From Clostridia bacterium (GTDB taxonomy: Bacteria; Bacillota; Clostridia; TANB77; RGIG9151), in NCBI GenBank assembly GCA_017934955.1, contig JAGBIO010000024.1:14550-78549 (forward strand): DNA of 64,000 nt, written 5' to 3'. This document shows, one piece after another, positions 5,618 to 40,254 of the stretch. The position numbers and the translations under genes were made by a program. The notes below the pieces were generated by a model. It was not told where the DNA came from, made no database searches, and worked only from the letters and a program-made list of their open reading frames with translations. Positions within the stretch are counted from its first letter, which is position 1, and each line of letters begins with the position of its first letter.

Positions 5618-5634
5618 TCATCTTCATCCTTTCT

Positions 5635-8106
5635 TTAGTCGGTTAAAAGAATAATTGCCGCGTTAGACGTCTTATCCTTTTTCAATACCAACACTTCTTG
5701 TCCCTTTTCTATATCCTTCTGTCTTGCATATTCTCCATTCTTCACAACCACCGGAGATTCTCCTAACAACACCGTTGTCTTTCGAATTCCAAGCCAATCC
5801 TCTTCCTCAAAATCATAATACTCCGTTTCCGAAATCACAAACTCTGTCCCATTCACACTATTAATAACCCCTCGTAACAGATACGGCATTTCACCTGCAT
5901 CAATCGTAGAAAGTGTTACAATTTCATCTCCGACAGCCACAATAATTGCGTTACTGTCCTTGTAATTTGTCGCACCTTCATCCGTCAATTCCCGAATATT
6001 GATCGGACCGGATTCAGTAAAAATACGCGACGTTTTCGTCAATACGAAATTTGCCACTTTATTTCTCACGGAATACCACTCTTCTCCGTCAAACTTTCCA
6101 TTTAAACGAAGTGTTACTTCCTCCTCTTCCTCAATCGATTTAATCGTCCCGGAATACAACAACGGTTTCTCTTCTATCTTCTCTTCCTTTTTCGTTGCCA
6201 CAACCACTTTCGCTATATACTCTCCCTCTTCATAAACTGCCGTTACCGTCACTTCATCCCCGCCATCAAATTTCGGCAATTTAACAACTTTTCCGTCTAT
6301 GATAAATAAGGTATCCTCTGTCATACCATAACGTTCCGAGTCATTGTACAAACGAAGTTGTCCGGAAGAGGCAGAATAGCTTCTGTACTCACCCGAACGC
6401 GTTACTTCTTTCGAAAAACTACCAATTATCATTGATTTTACTTTCTCTAAAGTCTTCGTATCTTCTCTCGTCACAATATACGCATATTTCCCGACTTGTT
6501 TTTCACCAAGTTCCGCCATCGAAATTGCCTTACCGTCATAATGAATTTCCATCTCACTATCCAACGGAATCGAAATAAAACTTTCACTCAGCGACTTCCA
6601 CTTCGAATCTTCTAAACATGCCGTATCCCTTAAAATGATTCTCTCCTGTACTCTGTTTATATCGCTGATATAACCCTTATATATATGATATACCGTTCTG
6701 CTGTCCGGAACAATTTCGATTTTTATCAGCTCACTGGCGGATGAATAGATCTTTGCATACTCTCCCGTATGTACTTCACTTAATGCAATTTCTTCTCCGT
6801 TTTTGTAAATCGGCACCCGCGAAACAGAATACTTTTTGCTTTCGTATTGGTCGTTTTCTACTGTAATTACCCCACTTGTAAGATTGGTTATGGTGCCGTA
6901 AGTAATCACCGTATTGGTAACGCCACGAATCACAACCAAATCGCCTAACTCATCAAACTCCAAATAAACGGTATCTCCCTGTAAAATTTCCGAAGCCTTC
7001 GTCTCTTTTCCGTCTTTCCAAATACTCGTCCACTCACCATACGTATAACTTTCCGTCTCTCCCAATCGATTTTTCACGGAAATCTGATAAAAATACGGAC
7101 TGTTTCCTACCACAATTCCCTGCTTGGAAACCGTTTCAATTACACCGGAATCTCCCGTCTCGTCAATACCCTCATCAATCACTCGAATAAACAAAACGGA
7201 TTTATCTGTACCGATAAAATATTCGATTTCATCCGAAGCCCTTAAAGCCTCTTTTCCGCTAAGTTTCCCATTACGAAAAACCGGAATGTTCTTTCCCGCA
7301 AGATCAATTGCAATTTCATTTCCTTCATCATCTGTCATAGAAACAGAAGTATCGCTCACAGAATCAATAAAGCCCTGTTTTTTCACAAGTGACAAATCGT
7401 CTAACAATAGCGTTTCACAATTTTTAAAGATTTGCGCCAATTCCGCACGTTTTAATCCACTCTTCGGCTGAAACATCTTATCCTCTGTCCCAACCATAAT
7501 CTGATTGCTGGAAACCGCCTCTACGTAGTTTTTATATTTCTCATCAATCTGCGTTTTATCATAAAAATCAATTTTAGCCTCTTCCTTCGTATTCAAAGAA
7601 AAAGCACGACAGATTAATCCCGCCATCTCTTCTCTCGTAATCGGATAGTCTCGTATCAAAACGCCTTTCGCCTTCATCGCCTCTGCATTCCCCGAAATAT
7701 CCGACTTTTTCATGACAATTTTTTCAGTAATCAACCCCTGATTCATCGCATATTTAATATATTTATCCGACCAAGTATTCGCAATTCCCTTCATTTTTTG
7801 TACTTCATCGGCTTTTCCCAACGCATTTAACACAATTGTAATTGCCTGTTCATTCGTAACATAAGAATCCGGTGAAAAAACCGAAGAAGAAAATCCGTTC
7901 ATTACCGAAAGCGCCGTCATCTCATAAATCGCCGAAGCCGCCCAATAAGAACTTCCTTTCCCGCTCACATCTTGAAACTGAAGTGCATTTACTCTCGCAT
8001 CTCCCGCACTCATTCCGTAATAAGTAACATCCGCCGCAAAAGAAACCTGATTTAATAAAATTGTCATTCCTAACGCCACAAACAATTCTTTCCTCATTTT
8101 TTTCAC
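5635..8106 (-). CDS. Large secreted SLH-domain protein (N-terminal SLH triplet), probable S-layer-associated protein
   Basis: 823 aa with a signal peptide and N-terminal SLH modules (YWAASAIYEMTALSVMNGF...). The rest of the protein is beta-rich. Confidence 0.7.
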   Translation of the reverse strand: MKKMRKELFVALGMTILLNQVSFAADVTYYGMSAGDARVNALQFQDVSGKGSSYWAASAIYEMTALSVMNGFSSSVFSPDSYVTNEQAITIVLNALGKADEVQKMKGIANTWSDKYIKYAMNQGLITEKIVMKKSDISGNAEAMKAKGVLIRDYPITREEMAGLICRAFSLNTKEEAKIDFYDKTQIDEKYKNYVEAVSSNQIMVGTEDKMFQPKSGLKRAELAQIFKNCETLLLDDLSLVKKQGFIDSVSDTSVSMTDDEGNEIAIDLAGKNIPVFRNGKLSGKEALRASDEIEYFIGTDKSVLFIRVIDEGIDETGDSGVIETVSKQGIVVGNSPYFYQISVKNRLGETESYTYGEWTSIWKDGKETKASEILQGDTVYLEFDELGDLVVIRGVTNTVITYGTITNLTSGVITVENDQYESKKYSVSRVPIYKNGEEIALSEVHTGEYAKIYSSASELIKIEIVPDSRTVYHIYKGYISDINRVQERIILRDTACLEDSKWKSLSESFISIPLDSEMEIHYDGKAISMAELGEKQVGKYAYIVTREDTKTLEKVKSMIIGSFSKEVTRSGEYRSYSASSGQLRLYNDSERYGMTEDTLFIIDGKVVKLPKFDGGDEVTVTAVYEEGEYIAKVVVATKKEEKIEEKPLLYSGTIKSIEEEEEVTLRLNGKFDGEEWYSVRNKVANFVLTKTSRIFTESGPINIRELTDEGATNYKDSNAIIVAVGDEIVTLSTIDAGEMPYLLRGVINSVNGTEFVISETEYYDFEEEDWLGIRKTTVLLGESPVVVKNGEYARQKDIEKGQEVLVLKKDKTSNAAIILLTD

Positions 8107-8221
8107 CTACGTCCCTTTCTCACCCATTCTATCGTCAAAAAACATCATAGGATTAACAAAAATCCGCGTTATTTCTCCTATTTTTCAATATGTATATAGC
8201 GTAAATTTTTTCTATCATAAA

Positions 8222-8252
8222 CCATCGTAGGGGACGGCGTCCTCGACGTCCC
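8222..8252. repeat. REP-like hairpin, family C (GTAGGGGACGGCGTCCTCGACGTCCC)
   Basis: A GTAG leader plus a GC-rich palindrome (GGGACG...CGTCCC). It is followed by a T-run. Confidence 0.8.
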
Positions 8253-8295
8253 GTTTTCTCTATTTTGAATTATATCTTATTTATACTTTTGTTGT

Positions 8296-8450
8296 ATAGT
8301 TATTATTCAGACTATATCTCCTATAATACCGATACACCCATTGTAGGGACAGCATTCATGCTGTCCTGCTTTTTGCCTTTTCTGTGGACAGCATAAATGC
8401 TGTCCCTACACTATTTATGCTATTTCTATAAATTTAAGTCTGAATAGTAC
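8296..8450. mobile_element. MITE-like element: REPIN (inverted REP doublet) flanked by ~12-bp terminal inverted repeats TATTCAGACT...AGTCTGAATA
   Basis: Core TGTAGGGACAGCATTCATGCTGTCC...GGACAGCATAAATGCTGTCCCTACA with outer inverted repeats TATTCAGACTATA / TTAAGTCTGAATAGTA. The same architecture recurs at 12300-12460, 17330-17460, 17490-17630, 32935-33060 and 46130-46250. Confidence 0.7.
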
Positions 8451-8500
8451 CGTTATATAGGCAAAATCTTCAACTTTTCCTATATAAGAAAAAAAGGGCT

Positions 8501-8755
8501 TTAAGCCCTTTTTTCTTGTATTAGTTTTAACTTTTTCGCTAATTTCATATGTTTAATCGCATACTCCCGTTTCATTGCTTCTTCCTTCGTTGAAAATTCC
8601 TCAAAATAAAGCAACTTCACCGGGCCTCGTCCTTTTGTGTATTTCGCACCTTTTCCTTCATTATGAGCTTTTACCCGCGCTTCCACATCAGTAGTCCAAC
8701 CGGTATATAAACTCTTATCCTTACATTCTAAGATATACACAAAGTTTCCTTTCAT
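8501..8755 (-). CDS. GIY-YIG nuclease-domain protein (UPF0213/YazA-like, COG2827)
   Basis: 84 aa with YILECKDKSLYTGWTTDVEARVKAHNEGKGAKYTKGRGPVKLLYFEEF, the classic stand-alone GIY-YIG family signature. Confidence 0.8.
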   Translation of the reverse strand: MKGNFVYILECKDKSLYTGWTTDVEARVKAHNEGKGAKYTKGRGPVKLLYFEEFSTKEEAMKREYAIKHMKLAKKLKLIQEKRA

Positions 8756-9939
8756 ACTTTTAAACTCTCCGGCGAATACATCTCATCTACATCCTTACCG
8801 TAATCAATTCCGGCAATATCAAAACCGAATAACTTGTAAAATTCATGCCAATATCCGCTAATATCGGTATATTTTTCTAAATTATCATGCTCAAGTTCCT
8901 TCCAAATTCTTTCAATTTCCTGTTGAACATCTTCTCTCATCTCTAAATCATCGATTCGAATCCGATTTTCCGTATCTACCGGTACCGTTCCGTCCGCCCG
9001 ATACAATCTCTCTGCAAATAAACGCTGTATCTGCTCGATACATCCTTCATGAATCCCTTTTTCCTTCATTACTTTATATAAAATCGATATGTATAAAGGA
9101 ACAACCGGAATCGCCGCACTGGACTGTGTTACAAGTGCTTTGTTCACCGAAACGTATGCCTTTACATCAGAATACTTTTTATTTAATTCCTCTGCCGAAC
9201 GATACAAATCTGCCTTCGCACGACCAATGGTTCCATCAAAATAAACCGGATACGTCAACTTCGGTCCGATATAAGAATATGCAACCGTAACCGCATTTTC
9301 CTCCAAAACGTCAGCATCTTTTAAGGCTTTCATCCAATCTTTCCAATCTTCTCCGCCCATTACCTTTACCGTCGCTTCAATTTCCTCTTCATTTGCCGCT
9401 TCAATCGTAACTTCCGACAATTCCTTCGTTCTCAAATCAATCGTTTTATTGGTATAAGTATCCCCGGTTGTCTTTAATACGGAATTATATGTCGTTCCAT
9501 CCGCTGTCGTTCTTCTTGGAGAAGCCAAGCTGTAAACAACCAAATCAACCTTTCCCAAATCTTTTTTAATCAATTCTATCGTTTGATCTTTAATCTCTTT
9601 CGAAAAAGCATCTCCGTTAATCGTCTTTGCATAATATCCTTCTTTTTTCGCGAATTCTTCAAAAGCAGCAGTATTATACCAACCGGCAGTTGCCGTACGT
9701 TTTCCATCGGAAGGTTTATCAAAAATAACTCCGATTGTCGCCGCACCGGCACCAAAAGCCGCTGTTATTCGAGAAGCCAAGCCATATCCCATCGAAGCCC
9801 CGATTACCAATACTTTTTTTGCCCCATTTATTGTTCCTTTATTTTTTACATATTCAATTTGTTCTTTCACATATTCACGGCACCCTTCCGGATGTGCTGT
9901 CGTACAGATAAATCCTCTGATTTTGGGTTCTATTACCAT
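8752..9939 (-). CDS. fabV: Trans-2-enoyl-CoA/ACP reductase (NADH), FabV/TER family
   Basis: 395 aa, N-terminus MVIEPKIRGFICTTAHPEGC. It is collinear with Treponema TER/FabV, including the GASMGYGLASRI nucleotide motif and Y..K catalytic region. Confidence 0.9.
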   Translation of the reverse strand: MVIEPKIRGFICTTAHPEGCREYVKEQIEYVKNKGTINGAKKVLVIGASMGYGLASRITAAFGAGAATIGVIFDKPSDGKRTATAGWYNTAAFEEFAKKEGYYAKTINGDAFSKEIKDQTIELIKKDLGKVDLVVYSLASPRRTTADGTTYNSVLKTTGDTYTNKTIDLRTKELSEVTIEAANEEEIEATVKVMGGEDWKDWMKALKDADVLEENAVTVAYSYIGPKLTYPVYFDGTIGRAKADLYRSAEELNKKYSDVKAYVSVNKALVTQSSAAIPVVPLYISILYKVMKEKGIHEGCIEQIQRLFAERLYRADGTVPVDTENRIRIDDLEMREDVQQEIERIWKELEHDNLEKYTDISGYWHEFYKLFGFDIAGIDYGKDVDEMYSPESLKV

Positions 9940-14933: not shown

Positions 14934-17066
14934 TTAATTTAACGTCGTCTCACATTCACAATCCGTCAAATCTCCCAATTGCTCCTCACGAATCACATAC
15001 TTCTTGCGGTCGTTATATTCCTGTTTCTTTCCTAAATGGAAGTTTCCAACCGGACGAATAAAGCCAACCACTCTCGACCAAATCTCAGTATCGCCTCCGC
15101 AAGTCGGGCAACAGGATTGTTCACCCTTCAAATAACCATGCTCCGGACAAACACTAAACGTAGGAGTAATCGAGATATACGGTAATTTATGCGTTCCTAA
15201 CGCTTTTTGAATTAATTTCTTTGCTACCTTTGTATCTTCAATGCTTTCTCCTAAGTATAAATGCAATACTGTACCGCCGGTATATGTGCACTGTAAATCA
15301 TCTTGCAAATCCAACGTCTTAAAGATATCATCGGTAAACTTAACCGGAAGTTGTGTAGAATTCGTATAATAAGGAACTTCTCCACCTGCTGTAATAATAT
15401 CTTTTCCGTATTTCTCACGATCAATCTTCGCAAGTCTGTAAGAAACGCCTTCTGCCGGTGTCGCTTCCAAGTTGTAAACATGACCGGTTTCCTCTTGATA
15501 TCCGGTAATAATATCTCTTAAATAATTCATCACATCTAAAGCAATCTTTTGACCGTCTTCTGTCGTTAAATCCTTTCCGATTAAGTTCAAAAGTGCTTCA
15601 TTCATACCGATTACACCGATGGTGCTAAAATGATTGTGCCAGTAATCACCGAATCTCTCTTTCGCACCCTTTAAATATCTTGCACAATAAGGATATAGTC
15701 CCTTTTCTGTTTCCTCTTCAATCACTTTTCTCTTAATTTCCAAAGACTGTTTTGCCTTATCCGCAACATCCTTTATCATTGCCTTGAATTCCTCTACACT
15801 CTTTGCTTCAAAACCAAGACGAGGCAAGTTAATCGTTACAACACCAATGGAACCGGTAAGCGGGTTAGAGCCAAATAGTCCGCCGCCTCTTTTTCTAAGT
15901 TCCTTCAAATTCAATCTCAAACGACAACACATCGAAAGTGCATCATCCGGTGATAAGTCCGAATTAACATAGTTTGCAAAATACGGCGTTCCATACTTAC
16001 AAGTAATCTTCATATAATCTTCAATTACCTCAGAATCCCAATTCAAATCCTTCGTAATATTTAACGTCGGAATCGGGAAAGTAAAGGTTCTGCCATGCGC
16101 GTCTCCCTCATACATTACCTCGCAGAATGCCTTATTAATCATATCGCTTTCCTTTTGGAATTCGCCATAAGTTTTATCCATATATTGACCGCCGATAATC
16201 ACCGGTTCATTCTTTAAATTCTCCGGAATTGTCACATTCATCGTCAAATTAGAAAACGGACATTGGAATCCCACTCTTGTCGGCACATTCATATTAAAAA
16301 TAAACTCTTGAATCGCCTGCTTTACCTGAGGATAATCTAAATTATCGTAATATACAAACGGCGCGCAGAAAGTATCAAATCCAGACCAAGCCTGTGCTCC
16401 TGCTGTTTCCCCTTGTGTCGTAAATGTAGAATTTACAATTTGGCCTAAGAAGGATCTTAAATGTTTCGCCGGCTTACTATCCACTTTTCCCGGAACGCCG
16501 CCGAATCCTTCGGTAAGAAGCTGTCTTAAATCCCATCCGGTACAATATGCGCCGAAAAATCCCAAATCATGAAGATGCATTTCTCCCGATTCATGCGCTT
16601 TACGAATATTCTCCGGATAAACCTCATTTAACCAATACATTTTGGTAAATGCTTCTCTAACATAATTGTTTAAGCCGTTAATACTCTTTTGCATATTAGA
16701 GTTTTCCTTAATCAGCCAATCCTTATCCCCAAGATATTTCGAGAACATATCAATCGTACCGCCGATTAAAGCGTTCGTTTCTCTCGCACCCTTCCGCTTT
16801 TCTCTATATAAAATATAAGCCTTGGCTGTTTTGGCATGACCATTCTCAATCAAAACCTTTTCAACAATATCCTGCACATCCTCCACATTCGGAACTTTAT
16901 CCGCAAACTGCTTCTCGACAATCTTCATTACTTCATTCGACAAAGCCTCCGCCTTGCTGTAGTCCTCTCCACCACAAGCATGTGCCGCCTTAAAAATCGC
17001 CCTTGTGATTTTCTCCTGATGAAATTCCACAACTTCACCGTTTCTCTTACGAATTTTTGTGATCAT
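14934..17066 (-). CDS. nrdD: Anaerobic ribonucleoside-triphosphate reductase (class III RNR) NrdD
   Basis: 710 aa with an N-terminal ATP-cone (MITKIRKRNGEVVEF..). The C-terminal Zn-ribbon (CPEHGY..CCPTCGG) sits next to the glycyl-radical region (SRVVGFIRPV). Confidence 0.9.
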   Translation of the reverse strand: MITKIRKRNGEVVEFHQEKITRAIFKAAHACGGEDYSKAEALSNEVMKIVEKQFADKVPNVEDVQDIVEKVLIENGHAKTAKAYILYREKRKGARETNALIGGTIDMFSKYLGDKDWLIKENSNMQKSINGLNNYVREAFTKMYWLNEVYPENIRKAHESGEMHLHDLGFFGAYCTGWDLRQLLTEGFGGVPGKVDSKPAKHLRSFLGQIVNSTFTTQGETAGAQAWSGFDTFCAPFVYYDNLDYPQVKQAIQEFIFNMNVPTRVGFQCPFSNLTMNVTIPENLKNEPVIIGGQYMDKTYGEFQKESDMINKAFCEVMYEGDAHGRTFTFPIPTLNITKDLNWDSEVIEDYMKITCKYGTPYFANYVNSDLSPDDALSMCCRLRLNLKELRKRGGGLFGSNPLTGSIGVVTINLPRLGFEAKSVEEFKAMIKDVADKAKQSLEIKRKVIEEETEKGLYPYCARYLKGAKERFGDYWHNHFSTIGVIGMNEALLNLIGKDLTTEDGQKIALDVMNYLRDIITGYQEETGHVYNLEATPAEGVSYRLAKIDREKYGKDIITAGGEVPYYTNSTQLPVKFTDDIFKTLDLQDDLQCTYTGGTVLHLYLGESIEDTKVAKKLIQKALGTHKLPYISITPTFSVCPEHGYLKGEQSCCPTCGGDTEIWSRVVGFIRPVGNFHLGKKQEYNDRKKYVIREEQLGDLTDCECETTLN

Positions 17067-17122
17067 TCTGCTCTCCTCCTATGTTTCTTCATAATTTATC
17101 CAGAGACTATATCGTCATTCTG

Positions 17123-17170
17123 CACACAAGATTTAGTGGTTTTTTAAAAATATATAACAATATCTTGTGT
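17123..17170. promoter_or_regulatory. Putative tandem NrdR boxes upstream of nrdDG
   Basis: ACACAAGATTTAGTGG at 17123-17138, and AACAATATCTTGTGTT at 17156-17171 whose reverse complement is ACACAAGATATTGT. Both fit the NrdR box consensus acaCwAtATaTwGtgt, with centres ~32 bp apart (three helical turns), the typical NrdR arrangement. Confidence 0.45.
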
Positions 17171-17329
17171 TTTATTCTTCTTCCACTATATAGTTTAAAA
17201 ACAGAGAAAACAAGATTTAAATATCTTATTTTCTCTGTTTTTCTTCCATATTCTCGCTATTATAAAACTTAGGACTAAAGTACCGATTGTCAAGTTAACG
17301 AAAGAAGATTGTTTCTCACTCTGCTAAAC

Positions 17330-26323: not shown

Positions 26324-28330
26324 CTACTCTTCCTCCGCCGTCGTCTTATTCAACTCGATAAAGAACGTCGTACCCTTTCCATCCTCTGACTCAAATCGCA
26401 TATCCCCGTTAAACTTCCCTTTAATCGTAGAGTAGCACATATACAATCCCAAACCGGTTCCGTTCTTACCCTTCGACGTAACCATTTCCTTAAACAATTT
26501 ATCCTTCACATGCGGTGCAATTCCGCCGGCATAATCCTGTACTTCGATATACACTTTTTTCTCATCTTCCCGCACTCTCACATCAATATCTCCGCCTTCA
26601 TGATAAGCATCCATTGCATTAATAATCAAGTTATCCATTACCTGCACAATTGCGCTGATTTCACCCTTAATATAAGAATCCTTATTAATCTGCAAATCCA
26701 AATTCAAGTTACAATGGCGACGTTTTAACTCATTTTTCATCAAAATCTGTGTCCGAACAATCAACTCCTCCGCACTAAACTTTCCAACCGTCGAAGCATT
26801 CATCGAAACCGCTTGTCCTTTTACCGCATCAATTACCTCCGTCATATAGCTCAAGTACGGACGTATCTTCTCAATCCACTCCTTCATCTCCTGCGCAATT
26901 TGATGATGGTCTTCCTTCGTCACCTCGGAATCTTCAATCGACTCATCGTATTCCTTCACTAAATCCGTTACCCCCTCCAAAGCACCGGAAATCGACATAA
27001 TCGGAGTTTTTAAATTATGTGCAATTCCTCCGATTAATTGACCCAACGAAGACAAACGTTCCTGTTCCACCAAAATTTCCTGGTTTCGTTCTATTTTCTC
27101 TATATTATTCTTCTCCAAATCCAAAATCTTATTAAACGCCACAACCAACTCGCCGATTTCATCATTCGACGTCACAACTAACTTTTTATCGTAATCAATC
27201 GCTACTTGTTCCGAAATATTCGTCAATTTATCCGCAATCTCTGTAATATCCGAAGACATATCTTCCGCAAAGTAATACAAGATAAAAATCGCGATAGCAA
27301 ACATCAAGAAAATACTTCCAAAGAATAAGAAGACCATATTTTCCGAAGACAAATCATAACGTATTCCAATAATATACTCATCTTCCCCTAATTGAATATA
27401 CTCTGCCGTCGCCTGAATATCCGAAGCATAATAGTCATACAAATGCCCGCTATATCGTTCTCCCACCAAAAGAGCATATTTTAACAAAAACTCACTTAAA
27501 GGCTCGCCTTCGTTAAAAATCTCTTTTCCATTTTTAATCACGAAAGCAGTATCCTTCTCACTGATTTTATCAATCTTCCCAATTGCCGCAATAATGTCAC
27601 TTTCCGAATCAATCCCACTTGAAACCAGATTTGTTAAGCGAATATTATATTCATCAAATCGCATAACACCCTTTTCATGAACCAAACGCGCATACCCCAC
27701 TAACGCCAAAAACACCGAAGTTACCAAGAAAAGAGGCAAAATTTGCAGGAAAATTCTACTTTTCAAATTAAACTGCAAAAACCCTTTTTTAGCTTCCAAA
27801 TTGTTGGTTCGAATCAGTAATTTTTTCATCAATTTTTTAGTAAACACATAGGTAGTAACAGACAATAACGCCATAAAAACGAACGCCAATGCCGAAATTT
27901 TAATAATTAGGCTAAATTCCGTTTTTGTTATGTACAATACCAACGCGATAACCAACGGAACCACAAACAGCTGACAAAGATACAACACATAAGGAATCCG
28001 AAAACATCTGCCCTGCAACTGCTCAATCTCTTTCCGACTTTCCTCATCCTTCTTTTCCAATAGTCTTCCAATCTTATTAAAATCCTTTATTTGAAACCAC
28101 ACAAACAAATCCACCAGTGCCATAATTACAAGCACAATCGCAATATACTGCTTATAATAGGTCGCTCCCGCATCAATCTGTGTTTCAAAATAACTGTTAA
28201 TTACCTCCGGTCCGTAATTTAAAACGGCAGGAATTAAAAAGTAGAACCCGATTCCCAATAACAAAACAATAATGTTATAAACTTTAATCAAACCCAGTGC
28301 CTCTTTATTCTTTTTCCTCATTGGTATCAT
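26324..28330 (-). CDS. Sensor histidine kinase (multi-TM sensor, HAMP, HisKA, HATPase_c)
   Basis: 668 aa with an N-terminal multi-TM sensor region and a HAMP-like segment. H-box is LSSLGQLIGGIAHNLKTP, N/G boxes are NLIINAMDAY and GTGLGLYMCYS. Its start overlaps the NRPS stop by ~25 nt. Confidence 0.85.
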   Translation of the reverse strand: MIPMRKKNKEALGLIKVYNIIVLLLGIGFYFLIPAVLNYGPEVINSYFETQIDAGATYYKQYIAIVLVIMALVDLFVWFQIKDFNKIGRLLEKKDEESRKEIEQLQGRCFRIPYVLYLCQLFVVPLVIALVLYITKTEFSLIIKISALAFVFMALLSVTTYVFTKKLMKKLLIRTNNLEAKKGFLQFNLKSRIFLQILPLFLVTSVFLALVGYARLVHEKGVMRFDEYNIRLTNLVSSGIDSESDIIAAIGKIDKISEKDTAFVIKNGKEIFNEGEPLSEFLLKYALLVGERYSGHLYDYYASDIQATAEYIQLGEDEYIIGIRYDLSSENMVFLFFGSIFLMFAIAIFILYYFAEDMSSDITEIADKLTNISEQVAIDYDKKLVVTSNDEIGELVVAFNKILDLEKNNIEKIERNQEILVEQERLSSLGQLIGGIAHNLKTPIMSISGALEGVTDLVKEYDESIEDSEVTKEDHHQIAQEMKEWIEKIRPYLSYMTEVIDAVKGQAVSMNASTVGKFSAEELIVRTQILMKNELKRRHCNLNLDLQINKDSYIKGEISAIVQVMDNLIINAMDAYHEGGDIDVRVREDEKKVYIEVQDYAGGIAPHVKDKLFKEMVTSKGKNGTGLGLYMCYSTIKGKFNGDMRFESEDGKGTTFFIELNKTTAEEE

Positions 28331-31300
28331 CCCTTTTTACAATATAAATACTCTTTATCATATAGCAAATGATTTTCTGAATATACTCTTTATCCATCTT
28401 CGGCCATTCAAAACCGGCTAATTCCAAAAAGTGTTTCGTAATATCGCTTTCCACTAAAATATCACTGCTGTAATTAAGGTTTCCCTCTTCTCCAAGATAG
28501 ATTTGACCAACCAGCCGGTCCTTATTTCCAACATACCGAAAATCCAAATTTCCCGCTTTCACCAATTCCAAGAACCGTTTTACCGTAATCATATTGTGAT
28601 TGGTAATATGAAAAATCCTTCCCGTCGCTTCCGGAATATCAAAAGTCTTCACAATCGCTTCCGCTGACAAATCAATCGGAGAAAATTCAATCTCCTTCTC
28701 CAACAACTCATCCGAAACCTTGTTTCCTTCCAAAACCAACCGAATCGTCGCATAAAAAGCGTTTTCCTCAATATTTTTCTGGAAAACCCCATCGGAATAT
28801 CGTCCTGTCAGGTTCCCCATCCGATAAATCGTCGCCTTTAATCCCTTCTTCATTTCCGCCAAAATCAAATTCTCACTCTCAAACTTGCTTCGCACATAAA
28901 TATTATCTTGATAAGCCTGTCCGATATAAAGATCCTTCTCAGAAAAAGTTTCCTTGGTACAACGATTATCCACCAAATACTCCCCTACAACCGTAATGGT
29001 AGAAACATAATTCATCTTAATATGAAATTGCTTTGCAAATTCAACAATATTCTGTGTCCCAACCACATTTATATTTCGAATATCTTCATAATCACCGTAG
29101 TACTTCACAATCGCAGCTGAATGAATAATATTATCAATCTTTTTCCCCATTTCCTCATATAATTCATTCGAGAAACCAAGTTTTTCAAAAGAAATATTAC
29201 CATCCACCACAAAAATTCTTTTATCCAACAAATCCTTATATTTCCCATCGAAATAGAAATCCAACGTATCTTCCAAACGATGTCTCGCCTTCTGCGCCTT
29301 ATTACTCCGAACCAAACAATAAATCTTACTATCCGAATTTCTCTCTATCAGAGCCTGTAAAATATGACTTCCCAAAAATCCGGTAGAACCGGTCAATAAA
29401 ACATTTTCCGACTTTTCACGCTTTCCGGAAAGCACTTTACACTCTTCAAATTCCGGAACTTCCTGTATCTCAACTTCATCCTTTTCTTTATTCGCAAGAT
29501 TTCCCGTTATCTTATCACTTAATTCTTGAATGGTAGGATACTGATAAAAATCCTGCACTCCAATATTCCATTGATACTTCAACAAACTCGTCAGCGCCCC
29601 GATAACCTTCAATGAATCTGCACCAAGTTCAAAAATATTCTGATTAATTCCGATTTCCTTTAAATTCAATACTTTTCGGAATGTCTCTGCCAATATTTTT
29701 TGCTCCTGCGTTTGCGGTAAAATGAGTTCAACCTCCTCATCTTCCTGCACAATCTCCGGCAACTGCTTCCGATCTAACTTTCCATTCGCCGAAAGTGGCA
29801 TAGCCGGAAGCTGCATATAATAACTCGGCACCATATATTCCGGCATTTTAAGCATCAAAGACTTCTTCAATTCCTTCACATCAATCGACTTCTTCGCCAC
29901 AAAATAAGCGCACAAATTCTTAATACCGGTATTTTTATCTTCCCGTACAATAACAACCGCTTCATTAATTCCGTTAAAATCCTTAATCCGCGTCTCAATT
30001 TCCCCAATTTCAATTCGGAATCCCCGAATTTTAATTTGAAAATCAATACGTCCCATGTACTCAATATCGCCTTTCGGCATATAACGCGCCAAATCTCCCG
30101 TTTTGTACATCTTTGTTCCCGGTACAAACGGATTATCTACAAACTTCTCATCCGTCAAAGTTGGATTATTCACATAGCCTCTTGCCAAACCGTCGCCCGC
30201 AATATACAACTCTCCGATAATTCCAACCGGAAGAAGATTTTTATTACGATCCAGCACATATAACTGAATATTATCAATCGGCTTTCCAATCGGAATAATC
30301 CCGTTTGCCGGCGTCGGAGAACAATTAAAATAGGAAACATCCACCGTCGCCTCTGTCGGACCGTACAAATTCACTAGCTGCGCACCCGATTTGGTATAAA
30401 TCAAATTATTAAACTTTTTCACCTGATCCAATGTTAAAGCTTCGCCACTTGCAAACACCCATCGTAACGACGTTAGAGACTGAATATCTTTCGAAACATC
30501 CACATACTCTAAAAAAGCATTTAGCATGGAAGGCACAAAATGCATCACTGTCACATGATGTTCCTTCACCGCAGAAATAATTTTATCCGGATACTTCTGC
30601 GCCCCCGGCTCCAACATACACACTTTCGCCCCGACAAAATACCACCAAACAAGCTCCCATACCGAAACATCAAAGGTATAAGGCGTCTTCTGCAAAATAA
30701 CATCCTTCTCCGTGAGCGGATAACTTTTTTGCATCCAATGAATTCGATTAACCGCAGAATAATGCTCAATCATTGCACCCTTCGGCTTTCCGGTAGAACC
30801 CGATGTATAAATTACGTACGCCAAATTTCTTGAATGGTGCAATTTTTCTGCCTTTCGATAAGGCTCCTCTTTCAAAGCATCATTATTTACCTCAACTCTT
30901 TGAACCCCTTCTACCGTCGTTTTCACCGGTTCATGCGATAAAAAGAGCTTTGCACCGCTGTTTTCCAACATATAATTCACACGATCCATCGGGTAATCCG
31001 GATCCATCGGCATATACGCCGCACCCGCCTTATGAATCGCCAAAATTCCGATAATCATCTCTACCGAACGATACATTAACACACCAATAATATCATCCGG
31101 CTTTACTCCCAAATCTCTTAATCTCGCCGCTAATTTATCTGCCCTGTCATTTAACTCCTCATAAGTAAGCGATTTTCCCTCTGCCATCACTGCAACATTC
31201 TTCGGCGTTTTCCTCACCTGTTGCTCGAAAATCCGATCCAAAGTCATCTCCTTCGGGTACTCACAAGCCGTATCGTTAAACCCTAAAAGAATTCGATCCT

Positions 31301-32606
31301 TTTCCTTCTGCGAAACCATCTCCAAACTGCACAATTTCTTTTCGGGATTATCCAACGCATGCCACAGAAGTCGAATAATATGATCATGCAAAAACTCAAT
31401 TTCCTTCGCATAAAACATATCCTCCAAATAATCGTAGCTAACAATTAACGTTCCCTCGTTATCCCTATCATTCAAATCAATCGTCAAACTATGCGTCTGA
31501 TGTCCGTTAAAATGCCATCTCGTTGTATAAGGAACTTCCTCATCACTCGCAAACTTAGAATTTTGATACGACAAAATAATATCAAACAAAGCATCCTCCG
31601 TATCAAATTTTTCACGCAATTCTTTCTTCAAAACGTCATATGGATACTTTTGATTCCGCAAAATTCCCATCAATTCCGCTGAGAATTTTTTTGAAAAAGA
31701 TACCAGATTATCCTCCGGCTTAATTTCTGCCTTTATCGTAACGGTATTCGCAAACATCCCAATCATTTTCTTCTCACTCTGATTTCCACGATTCAAAATC
31801 AAAGTACCGAAATTAAAGCTTTCCTTCCCAATTGCACGATAAATATACATTGAAATCGCCGTCGAAAAAATAGAAAACACCGAAATATTGGTTTCTTCCG
31901 AATACTCTTTTAACTTCTTACATAATTTTTCCGGCAGAACATAGCTTTTTCGCTTCGCCGCCGTAGAAATCGTATTCGTCTTTCTCAATTTTAATTTCGC
32001 CGCCTCAAAGCCCTCCGAAAACTTATCCAACCAGTATTTTTGCGAACGCTCGTACTTTTTCGAATGATTATACTCCTCTTCCGTCTGAATATACTCCAAA
32101 TAGGACGGCGTCTCTAAATGAATCTCCTTTCCATGCAACATCGCTTTATAGCAATCAATAATCTCATTCACTGCCGTCACCATCGTCCAACCATCCGAAA
32201 TCAAATGATGCATTTTGATATAAAAAGAAATTTTTTCCTCTCTCTTCATAATCGCAAAATAAAAAAGATTATTTTCATAGATGTCAAAAGGAACCCTCGC
32301 TTGGGTTTCTTCCCATGAAAAATAATCTTCCTGTGTCTTTCCGGAAAAATCAATTACCTCGATGTCATAGTATTGATACGGCACCACAAACTGCATGGTC
32401 TCCCCATCTGCTTCCTTAAAATGAAGTCGAAAACCATCGTTTAACTCAATCACTTTATTAATTGCTTTTTTTAAAATTTCTATATCAATATCCTTCTCCA
32501 CAAAATTTACACTTCCGGCAATTACGCCCAAACTTGTTCCCGGATTAAATTTCTCCATAAAAAGCAAATTTCTCTGCGGATGCGTTAAAGAATACAATTT
32601 TTCCAT
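28305..32606 (-). CDS. Single-module nonribosomal peptide synthetase with C-A-T-R architecture (condensation, adenylation, thiolation, terminal NAD(P)H thioester reductase)
   Basis: 1433 aa. The C domain has HHLISDGWT, the A domain has YTSGSTGKPKG and YKTGDLARY plus GRIDFQIKIRGFRIEIGEIE, the PCP has FELGADSLK, and the R domain has LLTGSTGFLGSHIL (Rossmann) plus a YxxxK region. Confidence 0.9.
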   Translation of the reverse strand: MEKLYSLTHPQRNLLFMEKFNPGTSLGVIAGSVNFVEKDIDIEILKKAINKVIELNDGFRLHFKEADGETMQFVVPYQYYDIEVIDFSGKTQEDYFSWEETQARVPFDIYENNLFYFAIMKREEKISFYIKMHHLISDGWTMVTAVNEIIDCYKAMLHGKEIHLETPSYLEYIQTEEEYNHSKKYERSQKYWLDKFSEGFEAAKLKLRKTNTISTAAKRKSYVLPEKLCKKLKEYSEETNISVFSIFSTAISMYIYRAIGKESFNFGTLILNRGNQSEKKMIGMFANTVTIKAEIKPEDNLVSFSKKFSAELMGILRNQKYPYDVLKKELREKFDTEDALFDIILSYQNSKFASDEEVPYTTRWHFNGHQTHSLTIDLNDRDNEGTLIVSYDYLEDMFYAKEIEFLHDHIIRLLWHALDNPEKKLCSLEMVSQKEKDRILLGFNDTACEYPKEMTLDRIFEQQVRKTPKNVAVMAEGKSLTYEELNDRADKLAARLRDLGVKPDDIIGVLMYRSVEMIIGILAIHKAGAAYMPMDPDYPMDRVNYMLENSGAKLFLSHEPVKTTVEGVQRVEVNNDALKEEPYRKAEKLHHSRNLAYVIYTSGSTGKPKGAMIEHYSAVNRIHWMQKSYPLTEKDVILQKTPYTFDVSVWELVWWYFVGAKVCMLEPGAQKYPDKIISAVKEHHVTVMHFVPSMLNAFLEYVDVSKDIQSLTSLRWVFASGEALTLDQVKKFNNLIYTKSGAQLVNLYGPTEATVDVSYFNCSPTPANGIIPIGKPIDNIQLYVLDRNKNLLPVGIIGELYIAGDGLARGYVNNPTLTDEKFVDNPFVPGTKMYKTGDLARYMPKGDIEYMGRIDFQIKIRGFRIEIGEIETRIKDFNGINEAVVIVREDKNTGIKNLCAYFVAKKSIDVKELKKSLMLKMPEYMVPSYYMQLPAMPLSANGKLDRKQLPEIVQEDEEVELILPQTQEQKILAETFRKVLNLKEIGINQNIFELGADSLKVIGALTSLLKYQWNIGVQDFYQYPTIQELSDKITGNLANKEKDEVEIQEVPEFEECKVLSGKREKSENVLLTGSTGFLGSHILQALIERNSDSKIYCLVRSNKAQKARHRLEDTLDFYFDGKYKDLLDKRIFVVDGNISFEKLGFSNELYEEMGKKIDNIIHSAAIVKYYGDYEDIRNINVVGTQNIVEFAKQFHIKMNYVSTITVVGEYLVDNRCTKETFSEKDLYIGQAYQDNIYVRSKFESENLILAEMKKGLKATIYRMGNLTGRYSDGVFQKNIEENAFYATIRLVLEGNKVSDELLEKEIEFSPIDLSAEAIVKTFDIPEATGRIFHITNHNMITVKRFLELVKAGNLDFRYVGNKDRLVGQIYLGEEGNLNYSSDILVESDITKHFLELAGFEWPKMDKEYIQKIICYMIKSIYIVKRDDTNEEKE

Positions 32607-32742
32607 ATCTTACTACCTCCATTATGCCATCGTCCAACCAATTTCTAATTTCCTCTACATTTTATCATACTACTCCCTAAAAATCAAAAGAATATTACAT
32701 AAAAAACAGGACAAACTAAAAAAGAAAGAGAGGGGATTTAAA

Positions 32743-32904
32743 ATGGCAACTCCGAATAAATTAACCGTACACTGTTCGGTAGACACATGCGGATACTGGA
32801 ACAATCACTTCTGTTCCGCAAAAGAATTATTAGTGAACAACATGACAGGAAAAGCAAAAACATCCGACGGAACTTGTTGCGAAACATTTATTCCAAAGGA
32901 CTAA
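32743..32904 (+). CDS. DUF1540-family small Cys-rich protein (53 aa)
   Basis: MATPNKLTVHCSVDTCGYWNNHFCSAKELLVNNMTGKAKTSDGTCCETFIPKD has the C..C.Y......C......V.......T..C.TF pattern of Firmicute DUF1540 proteins. An RBS AGAGAGGGG lies upstream. Confidence 0.55.
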   Translation: MATPNKLTVHCSVDTCGYWNNHFCSAKELLVNNMTGKAKTSDGTCCETFIPKD

Positions 32905-32934: not shown

Positions 32935-33060
32935 TAAAAATGGCACAAACACTGTAGGGACAGCATTCATGCTGTCCTGCATTCCGCATTTTCTGCGGAC
33001 AGCATGAATGCTGTCCCTACAAGGCTTTAGTGCAAATAATAAGTTGTTAAGTCTAACCAG
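32935..33060. mobile_element. MITE-like REPIN element (family A)
   Basis: CTGTAGGGACAGCATTCATGCTGTCC...GCGGACAGCATGAATGCTGTCCCTACAAGG...TTAAGTCTAACCAGTAAC. Confidence 0.7.
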
Positions 33061-33065
33061 TAACA

Positions 33066-33130
33066 AAGGGGCTGTAAAAAACACCTCGGGAAAATAAAAT
33101 TTTTCCGAGGTGTTTTTTACAGCCCCTTTC
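33066..33130. terminator. Bidirectional rho-independent terminator between convergent genes
   Basis: Perfect 24-bp stem AAAGGGGCTGTAAAAAACACCTCGG / CCGAGGTGTTTTTTACAGCCCCTT around an A/T loop, with T-runs on both strands. Confidence 0.6.
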
Positions 33131-33140
33131 TTTTTACTCT

Positions 33141-38433: not shown

Positions 38434-40254
38434 TTACTCAATCCACATTTTATGCGCCTTCCGAATCTCTAATCCCCGCATCTGTAAAAATTCCTGTATC
38501 TTCTTCTCCTCTAACGCCCGCTTCACCTTCAGCGTCGTCGTCTTTATCAATTCATTTTTACTAAATAACACATACCGTATAATCTTGTACTTCGGAATCG
38601 TCTCGTTCATATGCCGAATCGCCTCTTCCACAGCCTCTGCTTTCGAAGCCTCCTCTAAAACAAGCTCTGCACAAATCTGCACATCATTATCCTTCGTCTT
38701 ATACCCCCAAACAAACGACTCCTTCACCCCCGGAATCGCATTAATCAACTCCTCGTACTCCTCCGGAAACGCCTTTTTCCCGTTATATAACACAATCATC
38801 GACTTCTCACGACCGGTAATTTTCAAATTTCCGGTTTCATCAATCACACCCAAATCTCCCGTCTTAAACCAACCATCCTCGGTAAACGCTTCCTTTGTCT
38901 CCTCCGGCGAATCAAAATATCCCTTTGTCACGTTTTTTCCCTTCACATAAATCTCACCGATACCCTCTTGATCCGGTGAATCAATCGTAATCTCTACATC
39001 CTTCACAGGACAGCCAACCGTCCCCGCCGGATTCTTTCCCGGGACTGTCGCACAAATCAACGGAGAAGTTTCTGTCAAACCATACCCCTGCAAAAACAAG
39101 ATTCCCAAACTCTCAAAATACTCAATAATCTCCTTCCGTATCGGTGCCGCACCGCTCGCCATCAACCGCAACTTCGGAGAAATTTTCTTACGCACCGGCG
39201 CCATAATCCACCTTCTCAAATCCAAATGCAACCTCAAGAAAAACGATGACAATGCCATCAACCGATTCACACTGTTCTCTTTTCCAGACTTCTTAATCTC
39301 CGTCCGAATTCGATTATATAACGTCTCAAAAATCGCCGGTACCGCCACCAATACACTCACTTGGAACTCTTTCATGTTATCCGAAATATGTTTAATTCCC
39401 TCACAATAAGAAATACACACGCCGGAATAAAACATAAATAAAAATCCTAACGTATTCTCAAACGTATGATGAAGCGGTAACAAAGACAAATGAACATCCT
39501 TTTCCTTCGCACGAATCAAAGCAGAACACGAAAACAAATTCGACAAAATATTTCTTTGCGAAAGCAAAACTCCCTTTGAACGTTTCGTCGTACCCGAAGT
39601 AAACAGCAAAACACTCGTCTCCTCCGGATTTACCTCCGCTTTAAGAAACGTTTTATGCCCTGCCTCCAAGCGAGCCTTCCCCTTCTCCATATACTCTTTT
39701 AACACCTTAATCTTAGAATTTTTCTCTGTCTCAATCTCATCAAAACAAATATATTGTTTTAACTTCGTATTTGTTCCCGCCATTTTCTCCATAATCTCTT
39801 TATAATTCTTACTAAAGAAAATCGCCTCACAACCGCTTCTCTCAATTAAATTGGTAATCTCCCCCTCCGGAAGATGCTTATCCAAAGGAACCACAACCCC
39901 CGTTCCGGCAGTTACCGCCATATAAGCCAAACTCCACTCGTAACGATTTTCACTGATAATCGCTATTTTTTTATTTTTTAAATCATTCGCACAAAGTTCC
40001 GTCCCCAAACAATCCACATCTTCCGCAAAATCCGAATAACTCTTTCGAATTGTTTTTCGATTTCGTTTATACAAAAACGCCGTCTTTTCTTGATACTTAT
40101 TTTGGGCATAACGAATTAGGGATTTAAAATCCTTAATTTTCTCCGGAATCTTTACTTCAAGATCTCCCAAACCTCTAATAATCTTTCTTCCGTTCTCCTG
40201 ATAAATTTCTGCATTTTTTCTCATAACGAACCTCCGTTCAATATTCTCTGCCAA
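38434..40254 (-). CDS. Long-chain fatty-acid--CoA ligase (AMP-dependent synthetase/ligase, FadD/LcfA-like)
   Basis: 606 aa with AMP-binding motifs LLFTSGTTKRSKGVLLS, GYGLTETS and WFKTGDLGVIDETGNLKITGREKS. Confidence 0.8.
   Translation of the reverse strand: MAENIERRFVMRKNAEIYQENGRKIIRGLGDLEVKIPEKIKDFKSLIRYAQNKYQEKTAFLYKRNRKTIRKSYSDFAEDVDCLGTELCANDLKNKKIAIISENRYEWSLAYMAVTAGTGVVVPLDKHLPEGEITNLIERSGCEAIFFSKNYKEIMEKMAGTNTKLKQYICFDEIETEKNSKIKVLKEYMEKGKARLEAGHKTFLKAEVNPEETSVLLFTSGTTKRSKGVLLSQRNILSNLFSCSALIRAKEKDVHLSLLPLHHTFENTLGFLFMFYSGVCISYCEGIKHISDNMKEFQVSVLVAVPAIFETLYNRIRTEIKKSGKENSVNRLMALSSFFLRLHLDLRRWIMAPVRKKISPKLRLMASGAAPIRKEIIEYFESLGILFLQGYGLTETSPLICATVPGKNPAGTVGCPVKDVEITIDSPDQEGIGEIYVKGKNVTKGYFDSPEETKEAFTEDGWFKTGDLGVIDETGNLKITGREKSMIVLYNGKKAFPEEYEELINAIPGVKESFVWGYKTKDNDVQICAELVLEEASKAEAVEEAIRHMNETIPKYKIIRYVLFSKNELIKTTTLKVKRALEEKKIQEFLQMRGLEIRKAHKMWIE

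Follow-up and report, generated by a model that had tools for sequence, protein, structure and literature searches.

A single-module non-ribosomal peptide synthetase and a co-diversifying sensor histidine kinase form a probable, apparently undescribed synthase-receptor cassette in anaerobic Clostridia

The 64,000-nucleotide stretch of DNA analysed here (hereafter the window; positions 14,550 to 78,549 of contig JAGBIO010000024.1, assembly GCA_017934955.1, from a Clostridia bacterium) carries on its reverse strand two adjacent genes, one for a single-module non-ribosomal peptide synthetase (NRPS) and one for a membrane-bound sensor histidine kinase (Table 1). Comparison with about 90 related loci suggests that this pair belongs to a widespread cassette of anaerobic Clostridia. 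As judged from pairwise sequence identities, the NRPS and the sensor part of the kinase co-diversify on a conserved background made up of the kinase core, a response regulator and the flanking genes.

The NRPS gene (28305-32606, stop codon included) is an intact open reading frame (ORF) of 1433 codons for amino acids, the same one in which a first-pass annotation of this DNA had recognized a minimal condensation-adenylation-thiolation-reductase (C-A-T-R) module, and every domain and catalytic motif of that architecture is present. Pfam places Condensation (PF00668, E 7e-77) at residues 2-439, AMP-binding (E 4e-90) at 460-811 with AMP-binding_C at 869-943, PP-binding (PF00550) at 972-1031 and the NAD_binding_4 thioester reductase domain (PF07993, E 2e-48) at 1071-1318. 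Among the NCBIfam models, amino-acid adenylation (TIGR01733) scores 454.6 bits, above its cut-off of 317, and thioester reductase (TIGR01746) scores 189.7 bits, slightly under its cut-off of 213. The HHLISDG motif of the C domain lies at residue 133; the A domain contains SGSTGKPKG (A3), NGKLDR (A10) and the equivalents of Asp235 and Lys517; the carrier motif is LGADSL; and the reductase has TGSTGFLG, VST and YVRSK, the last two contributing to a Thr/Tyr/Lys triad. Loss of the A-domain Asp and Lys, or of the reductase Tyr and Lys, had been named as a sign of an inactive enzyme, and both pairs are retained. The catalytic motifs of every domain are likewise kept throughout the cassette family. 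Both NRPS and kinase are, on dN/dS (the ratio of nonsynonymous to synonymous substitution rates), under purifying selection: against the orthologue in the syntenic locus L001 the value is ~0.05 for the NRPS and ~0.05-0.07 for window genes, with dS saturated.

Read from an alignment of 78 family A domains, the ten Stachelhaus positions of the NRPS spell DVWHFSLVDK, beginning with D and ending with K, a code that we take to be the serine code of EntF (Stachelhaus 1999). The enzyme shares its serine code with EntF, its C-A-T-R order with MxcG (myxochelin) and its terminal reductase with AusA. It is nevertheless judged not to be an orthologue of entF, mxcG or ausA because, although these are its best NCBIfam alignments, the equivalog scores are all far under their cut-offs (564 against 2300 bits for MxcG, 516 against 2400 for EntF, to which residues 36-1002 align, and 758 against 2500 for AusA), and by its domain content it falls in the class of R-terminated NRPSs. 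A siderophore role of the EntF or MxcG kind was considered and rejected on these scores, no dihydroxybenzoate (DHB) or aryl-carrier genes being found in the window and no thioesterase (TE) genes being found either. The MxcG, EntF and AusA systems, moreover, have no coupled kinase.

The kinase gene follows directly and is listed as an ORF of 668 amino acids (26324-28330, minus strand). HATPase_c matches with E 3e-20, HisKA scores 24.7 bits against a cut-off of 26.9 and HAMP is likewise just under its cut-off. The H-box GGIAHNLKTP is invariant among the kinase orthologues, and DNLIINAMDAY and GTGLGLY are invariant or nearly so. An AlphaFold model with a predicted local distance difference test (pLDDT) score of 78 runs from five transmembrane (TM) helices through an alpha/beta extracytoplasmic domain, a sixth TM helix and HAMP to the DHp and CA domains, in agreement with the multi-TM HAMP histidine kinase proposed at first. 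The sensor fragment was also predicted on its own, since the kinase core would dominate fold matches of the full model. In the predicted structure the extracytoplasmic domain shows a Cache/PDC fold, which would mark it as a sensor of the ligand-binding type. When the sensor region by itself was searched exhaustively with phmmer among 1.84 billion representatives, just 225 clusters (50% identity) proved to contain it, and for this reason the sensor is regarded as a discrete, specialized family. Database names for these kinases are generic, such as 'HAMP domain-containing histidine kinase'.

Table 1. Coordinates of the NRPS-kinase pair and of associated features, numbered from the first nucleotide of the window
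Feature	Positions	Strand	Basis
Single-module NRPS, C-A(Ser)-T-R	28305..32606	-	Pfam and NCBIfam domains, intact catalytic motifs, code, dN/dS
Condensation domain, aa 2-439, HHLISDG, initiating (starter) position	31290..32603	-	Pfam; two-module relatives
Adenylation domain, aa 460-943, code DVWHFSLVDK	29778..31229	-	Pfam and alignment of family A domains
Thiolation (peptidyl carrier protein, PCP) domain, aa 972-1031, LGADSL phosphopantetheine-attachment serine	29514..29693	-	Pfam and motif
Thioester reductase domain, aa 1068-1355, TGSTGFLG with Thr and YxxxK	28542..29405	-	Pfam, TIGR01746, motifs
Sensor histidine kinase, 665 aa from ATG 28321, stop included	26324..28321	-	Pfam, orthologues, AlphaFold model
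Membrane sensor module, aa 1-357: TM1-5, extracytoplasmic domain, TM6	27251..28321	-	Model and covariation
Extracytoplasmic sCache/PDC-like alpha/beta domain, aa ~215-330, between TM5 and TM6	27332..27679	-	
HAMP linker, aa ~359-410, last variable segment	27092..27247	-	Sub-cut-off Pfam match, helical in model
DHp and CA ATPase domain, constant kinase part, His435 phospho-acceptor	26327..27091	-	Pfam, orthologues
Promoter-like TTGATT-17-TAAAAT with TG extension, ~50 nt before NRPS start	32659..32687	-	Consensus match only
Two long hairpins, 32943-33029 and 33058-33138	32943..33138	.	Sequence; Rfam gives only trivial miRNA-precursor-like matches
ACSL-type fatty-acyl-CoA ligase	38434..40254	-	Pfam AMP-binding and AMP-binding_C_3

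Three start codons are candidates for the kinase: ATG 28330, ATG 28321 with the Shine-Dalgarno (SD)-like AAAGGGA upstream, and TTG 28291 with the SD sequence AAGAGG. ATG 28321 yields the basic N-terminus MRKKNK, which aligns with the N-termini of the orthologues. The NRPS stop codon TAA occupies 28305-28307, giving an overlap of 17-26 nt with the kinase or, from TTG 28291, a gap of 13 nt at most. An overlap of stop and start is likely, and to that extent the earlier description of the genes as translationally fused stands, but it depends on the start codon and the 13-nt gap is the other outcome. Whichever start is used, the junction is too short for a terminator or a promoter. It leaves no room for the independent kinase promoter that had been raised as an argument against coupling, and co-transcription of the two genes seems hardly avoidable. 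At the other end, the sequence GGAGG stands 9 nt ahead of the NRPS ATG at 32606, and the promoter-like site of Table 1 is suggestive by its position, such sites in the region totalling what chance would produce. The hairpin at 33058-33138 ends a polysaccharide-deacetylase gene and that at 32943-33029 a divergent DUF1540-like gene; they are probably bidirectional terminators, and would give the NRPS-kinase operon an upstream boundary of its own, insulated from upstream transcription. Both hairpins are unusually long, near-perfect and placed back to back.

Relatives of the kinase were collected from GTDB genomes, each species being represented by a single one, with five aligned orthologues of the kinase as the query. 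At least 460 were found, and figures given for 80 genome loci describe the best 80 of at least 460, upstream counts being based on the 72 loci with at least 4.5 kb of upstream DNA and downstream counts on 66 loci. The best 80 stem mostly from uncultured Clostridia of human, rabbit, chicken, goat and sheep gut, together with Clostridium sp. CAG:508 and Dehalobacter. The kinase is full length in 78 of the 80 loci, and the sensor type of the window is common to 78 of the 80. A C-A-T-R NRPS ends at the kinase start in 70 of the 72 loci, and in the other two the NRPS is found elsewhere in the locus; the distance between the genes, 14 nt in the median, varies from -32 to +220 nt, and the two overlap in 16 of 67 pairs. 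Approached from the NRPS, the picture is the same: in ten of ten relatives (83% to ~31% identity, two-module and TE-terminated enzymes included) a multi-TM protein begins at the NRPS stop or a few nucleotides from it. In nine it is a histidine kinase confirmed by Pfam and in the tenth, L089, a 7-TM protein that is cut off by the contig end. Gene neighbourhoods differ among these ten, which include Dehalobacter and a metagenome-assembled genome (MAG) deposited as deltaproteobacterial. Seen by itself, the window might be taken for the chance adjacency of a secondary-metabolite NRPS and an unrelated orphan kinase, for its neighbourhood is otherwise housekeeping and no regulator is present. The counts from both directions, for gene pairs a few nucleotides apart in diverse species and surroundings, effectively refute this idea, to which we attach next to no probability.

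Several members of the collection deserve separate mention. A 100% identical fragment (P0007) occurs on an ENA contig of 20.9 kb. In L089 the gene at 4898-9807 encodes a C-A-T NRPS with a C-terminal thioesterase-like domain (there is no Pfam TE match, and close relatives carry PF00975); its A domain is 65% identical to that of the window and the start of the 7-TM protein overlaps its stop. From this example, pairing with a kinase may extend past the reductase-terminated NRPSs. Two loci, L025 and L072, each hold two kinase copies of the family, so that tandem cassettes exist in some genomes, and in L025 a second C-A-T-R NRPS follows the regulator. A closed 1.57 Mb Clostridia MAG chromosome (OZ007016.1, L045) has an NRPS, kinase and regulator cassette, which its small size indicates to be retained even in a strongly reduced genome.

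Covariation within the cassette was assessed from pairwise identities in MAFFT alignments, using ORFs called in this analysis. Among the family A domains the most frequent codes are those like DILQMGMVWK (n ~14), DFWNIGMVHK (n=12), DVWHFSLVDK (n=10) and DLTKIGEVGK (n=7), which apart from the serine code we take to specify Gly, Thr and Asn, respectively; DIFLIGLVYK, DSELTAEVCK, DIFQMAGIFK, DVYYGGMVGK and DVAYLGGICK also occur. Average-linkage clusters of the sensor (residues 1-405) match the A-domain code almost perfectly. When pairs of loci were compared at a fixed kinase-core identity of 0.7-0.8, sequence identity in the sensor was 0.59 for pairs with the same code and 0.29 for pairs with different codes, and the NRPS domains behaved alike (C, 0.57 and 0.36; A, 0.68 and 0.39; R, 0.62 and 0.38). 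The response regulator (0.78 in both classes) and the flanking genes Tex (0.83 and 0.84), ABC-F (0.88 and 0.89) and HtrA-like (0.67 and 0.64) showed next to no such difference. Across species, NRPS and sensor fall together to ~30-40% identity while the kinase core, the regulator and the housekeeping flanks remain at 75-95%. The loci L049 and L078 illustrate the contrast, with Tex and ABC-F each at 95%, the regulator at 90% and the kinase core at 86%, as against 26% for the sensor, 29% for C, 33% for A and 34% for R.

Within the kinase, all sub-regions from the N-terminus through HAMP are variable (0.21-0.42 identity for different codes), whereas DHp (0.81) and CA (0.73) are alike whether codes match or differ; the boundary of the variable unit therefore lies at the HAMP/DHp junction. 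Permuting the code labels within a 37-species clade gave a maximum sensor difference of 0.12, compared with the observed 0.327, which none of 5000 permutations reached; the kinase-core effect in the same test was just 0.026. The clade of the window itself displays the same mosaic, at the level of sequence identity: against L008 and L010, which have the Thr code, its kinase core is 85% identical, its sensor 47% and its NRPS 41-44%.

Such joint variation need not run through a small molecule. The multi-TM part of the kinase might anchor the NRPS or aid export of the product, in which case protein contacts would coevolve and the kinase would report NRPS occupancy. In keeping with this, all NRPS domains co-vary with the sensor, not the A domain alone; translational coupling would favour 1:1 assembly; and no dedicated exporter is conserved in the cassette. 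That homologous NRPSs are paired with unrelated sensors (6TM-Cache, or HisKA_7TM with or without PAS) is more easily explained by ligand recognition, however, and no docking domain is evident, so that we consider an arrangement of this kind improbable.

The first-pass annotation had described the kinase as an orphan with no response regulator in the vicinity. Locally this is correct, for none was detected in the 64 kb by Pfam on 31 large ORFs or by tblastn with three REC-HD-GYP regulators. For most relatives the term does not apply, since a REC-HD-GYP partner lies downstream on the same strand in 53 of the 66 loci with enough downstream DNA, within 500 nt in 49 of them. All 57 full-length regulators have the motifs HD..GK and HHE..DG.GYP, and the REC signature of the family is LLLTGHKDLAPP...IQGYCEK. 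Among the ten NRPS relatives, the gene after the kinase encodes a REC and HD-GYP regulator, with or without DUF3369 between the two domains, in six; in a seventh, L091, the regulator is found ~4 kb further on, beyond an inserted mobile element. The L091 interval at 16332-20300 contains a gene for a TraG/type IV secretion system (T4SS)-coupling protein and small ORFs between kinase and regulator, and the regulator there is called as two genes, REC and HD_5. The REC-HD-GYP regulator has no DNA-binding domain, and the two-component system would for this reason not be an ordinary transcriptional regulator of its cluster; HD-GYP domains hydrolyse cyclic di-GMP (c-di-GMP). The window appears to carry a serine-type member of the family whose regulator is no longer linked to it.

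A further link to c-di-GMP is suggested by some of the NRPSs themselves. A homologous, in-frame N-terminal extension of ~550 amino acids is present on two-module NRPSs of three loci (L016, 717-2360; L021, 869-2530; L025, 663-2366). Against PilZ, for which the Pfam cut-off is 22.5, it scores 34.9 bits in L025 and 22.2 bits in L016 and gives no match in L021, and the other ~330 amino acids have no Pfam match. The PilZ match suggests direct control of an NRPS by c-di-GMP.

These data also bear on a reading in which the kinase senses an external cue, from nutrients, the host or the envelope, and the pairing serves to make NRPS expression or activity follow that cue. Co-transcription of the two genes would suit it, Cache-type domains commonly bind nutrients, and c-di-GMP could gate those NRPSs that have the PilZ-matching extension (above the cut-off only in L025). 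Yet the associated regulator has no DNA-binding output, and with an external cue one would not expect a wholesale change of the sensor whenever NRPS specificity changes while flanks stay 90-95% identical. Nor was a riboswitch, for c-di-GMP or otherwise, found upstream of the window NRPS or anywhere in the loci of seven relatives, the only matches in the scan being terminator hairpins that resemble miRNA precursors. We regard an external cue as a poor explanation of the cassette.

As to the product, the module opens with its C domain and has no module upstream. Compared with six two-module relatives, the window C domain scores 231-333 bits with the N-terminal C domains and 62-112 bits with the internal ones, and it appears to group with the initiating C domains of the family. 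The most economical prediction is that the loaded amino acid is N-acylated and then set free by reduction, and the product of the window NRPS would probably be an N-acyl-serinal, or an N-acyl-serinol after a second reduction. Relatives offer candidates for the acylation machinery. An ACSL-type ligase gene divergently adjoins the NRPS in 25 of the 80 genome loci (gut), Dehalobacter has a phosphopantetheinyl transferase (PPTase) gene directly upstream of its NRPS, and in L090 (4349-6894) an ACSL/FAAL-type ligase, a 74-amino-acid carrier protein and a PPTase are encoded directly upstream of a C-A-T-C-A-T-R NRPS, which is followed by a HisKA_7TM kinase and then a REC-DUF3369-HD-GYP regulator. L090 is the most complete version of the cassette that we have seen.

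The window has an ACSL-type ligase gene of its own (Table 1), which the first-pass annotation had suggested as the source of the acyl donor. Its identity is 37-42% with the NRPS-adjacent ligases of the 25 gut loci and 76% with its syntenic counterpart in L001. It lies 5.8 kb from the operon, with genes for PCRF/RF-1, a ZIP transporter, ZnuA, an ABC ATPase and a deacetylase between. Membership in the operon was rejected on account of these five genes, which are unrelated, and of the divergent gene and the two terminators that also intervene; supply of the acyl donor in trans is conceivable, and we mention it with low confidence. The fatty-acid-amide NRPS family of Clostridia (ebf/ecf) was also considered as a home for the window enzyme and rejected, its C, T and A domains being stand-alone proteins and hence of another architecture and family.

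Taken together, these observations favour the view that NRPS and kinase form a signal-synthase/receptor operon used for communication, to which we assign a rough probability of 0.55. In outline, the NRPS would load L-serine onto its carrier domain, the starter-position C domain would transfer to the amine an acyl group, probably that of a fatty acid delivered as acyl-CoA or acyl-ACP (acyl carrier protein), and the terminal reductase would free the N-acyl-serinal or, after a second reduction, the N-acyl-serinol. This molecule, made by the cell itself and probably amphiphilic, would then be recognized at or in the membrane by the co-transcribed kinase, whose autophosphorylation would change. In most relatives the phosphoryl group would pass to the REC-HD-GYP regulator, giving c-di-GMP hydrolysis, not transcription, as the output; in the window genome the regulator would have to lie elsewhere. 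Exchange or divergence of NRPS and sensor part as one unit would create species-specific, pherotype-like pairs of signal and receptor. The sequences show domain content, intact catalytic residues, operon structure, conserved gene order and co-diversification; from these we infer product structure, export, ligand binding, phosphotransfer and a role in communication as opposed to self-monitoring. The broader product-sensing model, of which communication is one version, we hold to be probable. The first-pass annotation had suggested sensing of the product by the kinase, or a wiring of its synthesis to a signalling input, and this gains strong support from the occurrence of the pair in more than 80 loci of different species and from the joint diversification of NRPS and sensor.

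Recognition of the product by the sensor is also all that is required if the molecule is an effector aimed at others, such as an antimicrobial or a protease-inhibiting aldehyde, and the kinase monitors the cell's own output or damage, adjusting physiology through c-di-GMP. The linkage and co-diversification data fit this too, and R-terminated NRPSs from Clostridia of the gut reportedly make protease-inhibiting peptide aldehydes. The cassette has no conserved gene for resistance, export or immunity, however, and communication systems are where diversification of this pherotype-like kind, around an invariant transduction core, is known; the PilZ match in some NRPSs, above the cut-off only in L025, suggests a closed regulatory loop, not a weapon. 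We therefore think an effector role unlikely and retain the signal-synthase/receptor operon as the preferred reading.

Several points weigh against that reading. A single code can occur in several sensor clusters, Thr in four and Ser in two, and the amino acid alone thus does not define the sensor type. Co-diversification would also follow if the membrane domain of the sensor contacts the NRPS protein, not its product, and the cassettes of L005, L006, L088, L090 and L091 use the unrelated HisKA_7TM sensor. On the biosynthetic side, solved C domains of the elongation type (as which we take TycC, BacC and LgrA) and of the starter type (presumably 7c1h, 8f7h and 4jn3) give overlapping scores against the window C domain, and no acyl carrier, PPTase or exporter gene is present in the window operon. 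On the output side, 11 of the 66 loci have no REC-HD-GYP gene within 10 kb, a minority to which the window belongs together with its nearest relatives, L001-L003 and L008-L011, none of them showing a linked regulator. Finally, no report of a measured product, binding or phosphotransfer was found for any member of the cassette.

The pattern has parallels in known signalling systems. In agr and comQXP pherotypes, the signal genes and the sensor part of the kinase are hypervariable, and the cytoplasmic kinase part, the regulator and the flanks are conserved. The cassette resembles both agr (AgrB/D-AgrC-AgrA, staphylococci) and comQXPA (Bacillus subtilis) in having a variable synthase-sensor unit, here with its breakpoint at HAMP/DHp. 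Their signals are ribosomal peptides processed by AgrB or ComQ and their regulators bind DNA, whereas the cassette has an R-terminated NRPS and usually an HD-GYP phosphodiesterase, and there is no sequence relationship. The Rpf/DSF system of Xanthomonas (RpfF, RpfC, RpfG) is similar in that genes for the synthase of a lipid-like signal, for a multi-TM kinase and for a REC-HD-GYP protein lie in one cluster; this regulator architecture and its motifs were confirmed in 57 cassette relatives, although the HD-GYP regulator is not linked in the window. Unlike the cassette proteins, RpfF is a crotonase-family enzyme and RpfC a hybrid kinase, and Rpf/DSF is proteobacterial; we know of no pherotype mosaic in Rpf/DSF.

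Gut Clostridia are said, in the work of Guo in 2017 and of Schneider and Balskus in 2018 on ruminopeptin, to use R-terminated NRPSs to make (N-acyl) dipeptide aldehydes and pyrazinones, and the published role of these gut peptide-aldehyde NRPSs is reportedly host protease inhibition, not signalling. Both studies are cited in PMC12327764. The cassette likewise has an R-terminated NRPS and occurs in anaerobic gut Firmicutes; its relatives in L088, L090 and L091, from metagenome or MAG assemblies, are C-A-T-C-A-T-R enzymes with a kinase partner and an HD-GYP regulator in the same locus. The window NRPS may be related to these published enzymes.

NRPS-derived signals are known from proteobacteria as well. 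PvfC of the Pvf system of Pseudomonas, which we take to be a reductase-terminated A-T-R enzyme, differs from the cassette NRPS in having no C domain, in needing the N-oxygenase PvfB and in having no adjacent kinase. This NRPS makes small autoinducers, and their receptor is still unknown (PMC10194917). In the Vfm system of Dickeya, NRPS-type adenylation enzymes make the signal, polymorphism of the VfmO/P A-domain code was shown experimentally to define strain-specific signal groups, and, as proposed for the cassette, perception is by a two-component system (PMC9306890). Unlike the cassette, Vfm is a 26-gene proteobacterial cluster in which the linked polymorphism falls in the ABC permease VfmG and VfmH is a transcription factor. 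By sequence and architecture, the cassette is not a member of agr/comQXP, Rpf/DSF, Vfm or Pvf. Full-text searches of the open-access literature brought up no account of an NRPS-kinase-HD-GYP cassette or of its co-diversification, and we conclude that this is probably a synthase-receptor signalling cassette, apparently undescribed.

More tentatively, and at less than even odds, the whole might be pictured as an undescribed, widespread system of chemical communication among anaerobic Firmicutes, above all Dehalobacter and uncultured Clostridia of the gut and rumen, with the window as its serine allele type. N-acyl amino aldehydes or alcohols would be the autoinducers, multi-TM kinases their readers and c-di-GMP hydrolysis by REC-HD-GYP proteins the output; modules swapped or diversified between close species would produce private dialects, and in some lineages c-di-GMP may feed back on the NRPS by way of the PilZ-matching N-terminal extension. 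Small reductase-ended NRPS clusters are among the commonest biosynthetic loci of gut Clostridia, and the partnership of NRPS, kinase and phosphodiesterase gives a testable hypothesis, that their products are self-recognized signals with species-specific dialects. If true, a quorum sensing that is non-ribosomal and independent of peptide pheromones would be added for Gram-positive anaerobes, the signal would be tied to motility, adhesion and biofilm formation under c-di-GMP control, and the gut peptide-aldehyde NRPS clusters would be bacterial signalling loci rather than primarily sources of host-directed protease inhibitors. Studies of receptor specificity and the construction of orthogonal signalling parts could also draw on the matched ligands and receptors of the family (Ser, Thr, Gly, Asn and other types). 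For the window, the model predicts serine as the building block and indicates the kind of unlinked regulator to expect.

The surroundings of the operon have few ties to it. The next gene after the kinase, from which no obvious terminator separates it, is an AlbA_2 (Schlafen-like)/HATPase_c_4/Fic-like_C gene (24788-26212, minus strand). It was rejected as a member of the system on its absence from the syntenic L001 and from all other cassettes, and its absence from the otherwise syntenic L001 marks it as an insertion. Divergent from the NRPS is a cysteine-rich, DUF1540-like ORF of 53 amino acids (32743-32904, plus strand); the ORF at this position in L001 is annotated DUF1540, and it is not kept in other cassettes. 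The rest of the window is housekeeping and includes the PCRF/RF-1 release factor, zinc transport, PGM, SLH proteins, NrdD, [FeFe]-hydrogenase, spoIIR and dnaA, a gene content that indicates an anaerobic, spore-forming member of the Clostridia. The position of dnaA (59108-60442, minus strand) and a change in the sign of GC skew at ~60-62 kb put the window beside the origin of chromosome replication. A TwoAYGGAY RNA motif (Rfam RF01731, 50.6 bits against a gathering score of 43) occupies the intergenic segment 14016-14150 on the plus strand, beside the genes for anaerobic ribonucleotide reductase activase and NrdD on the opposite strand.

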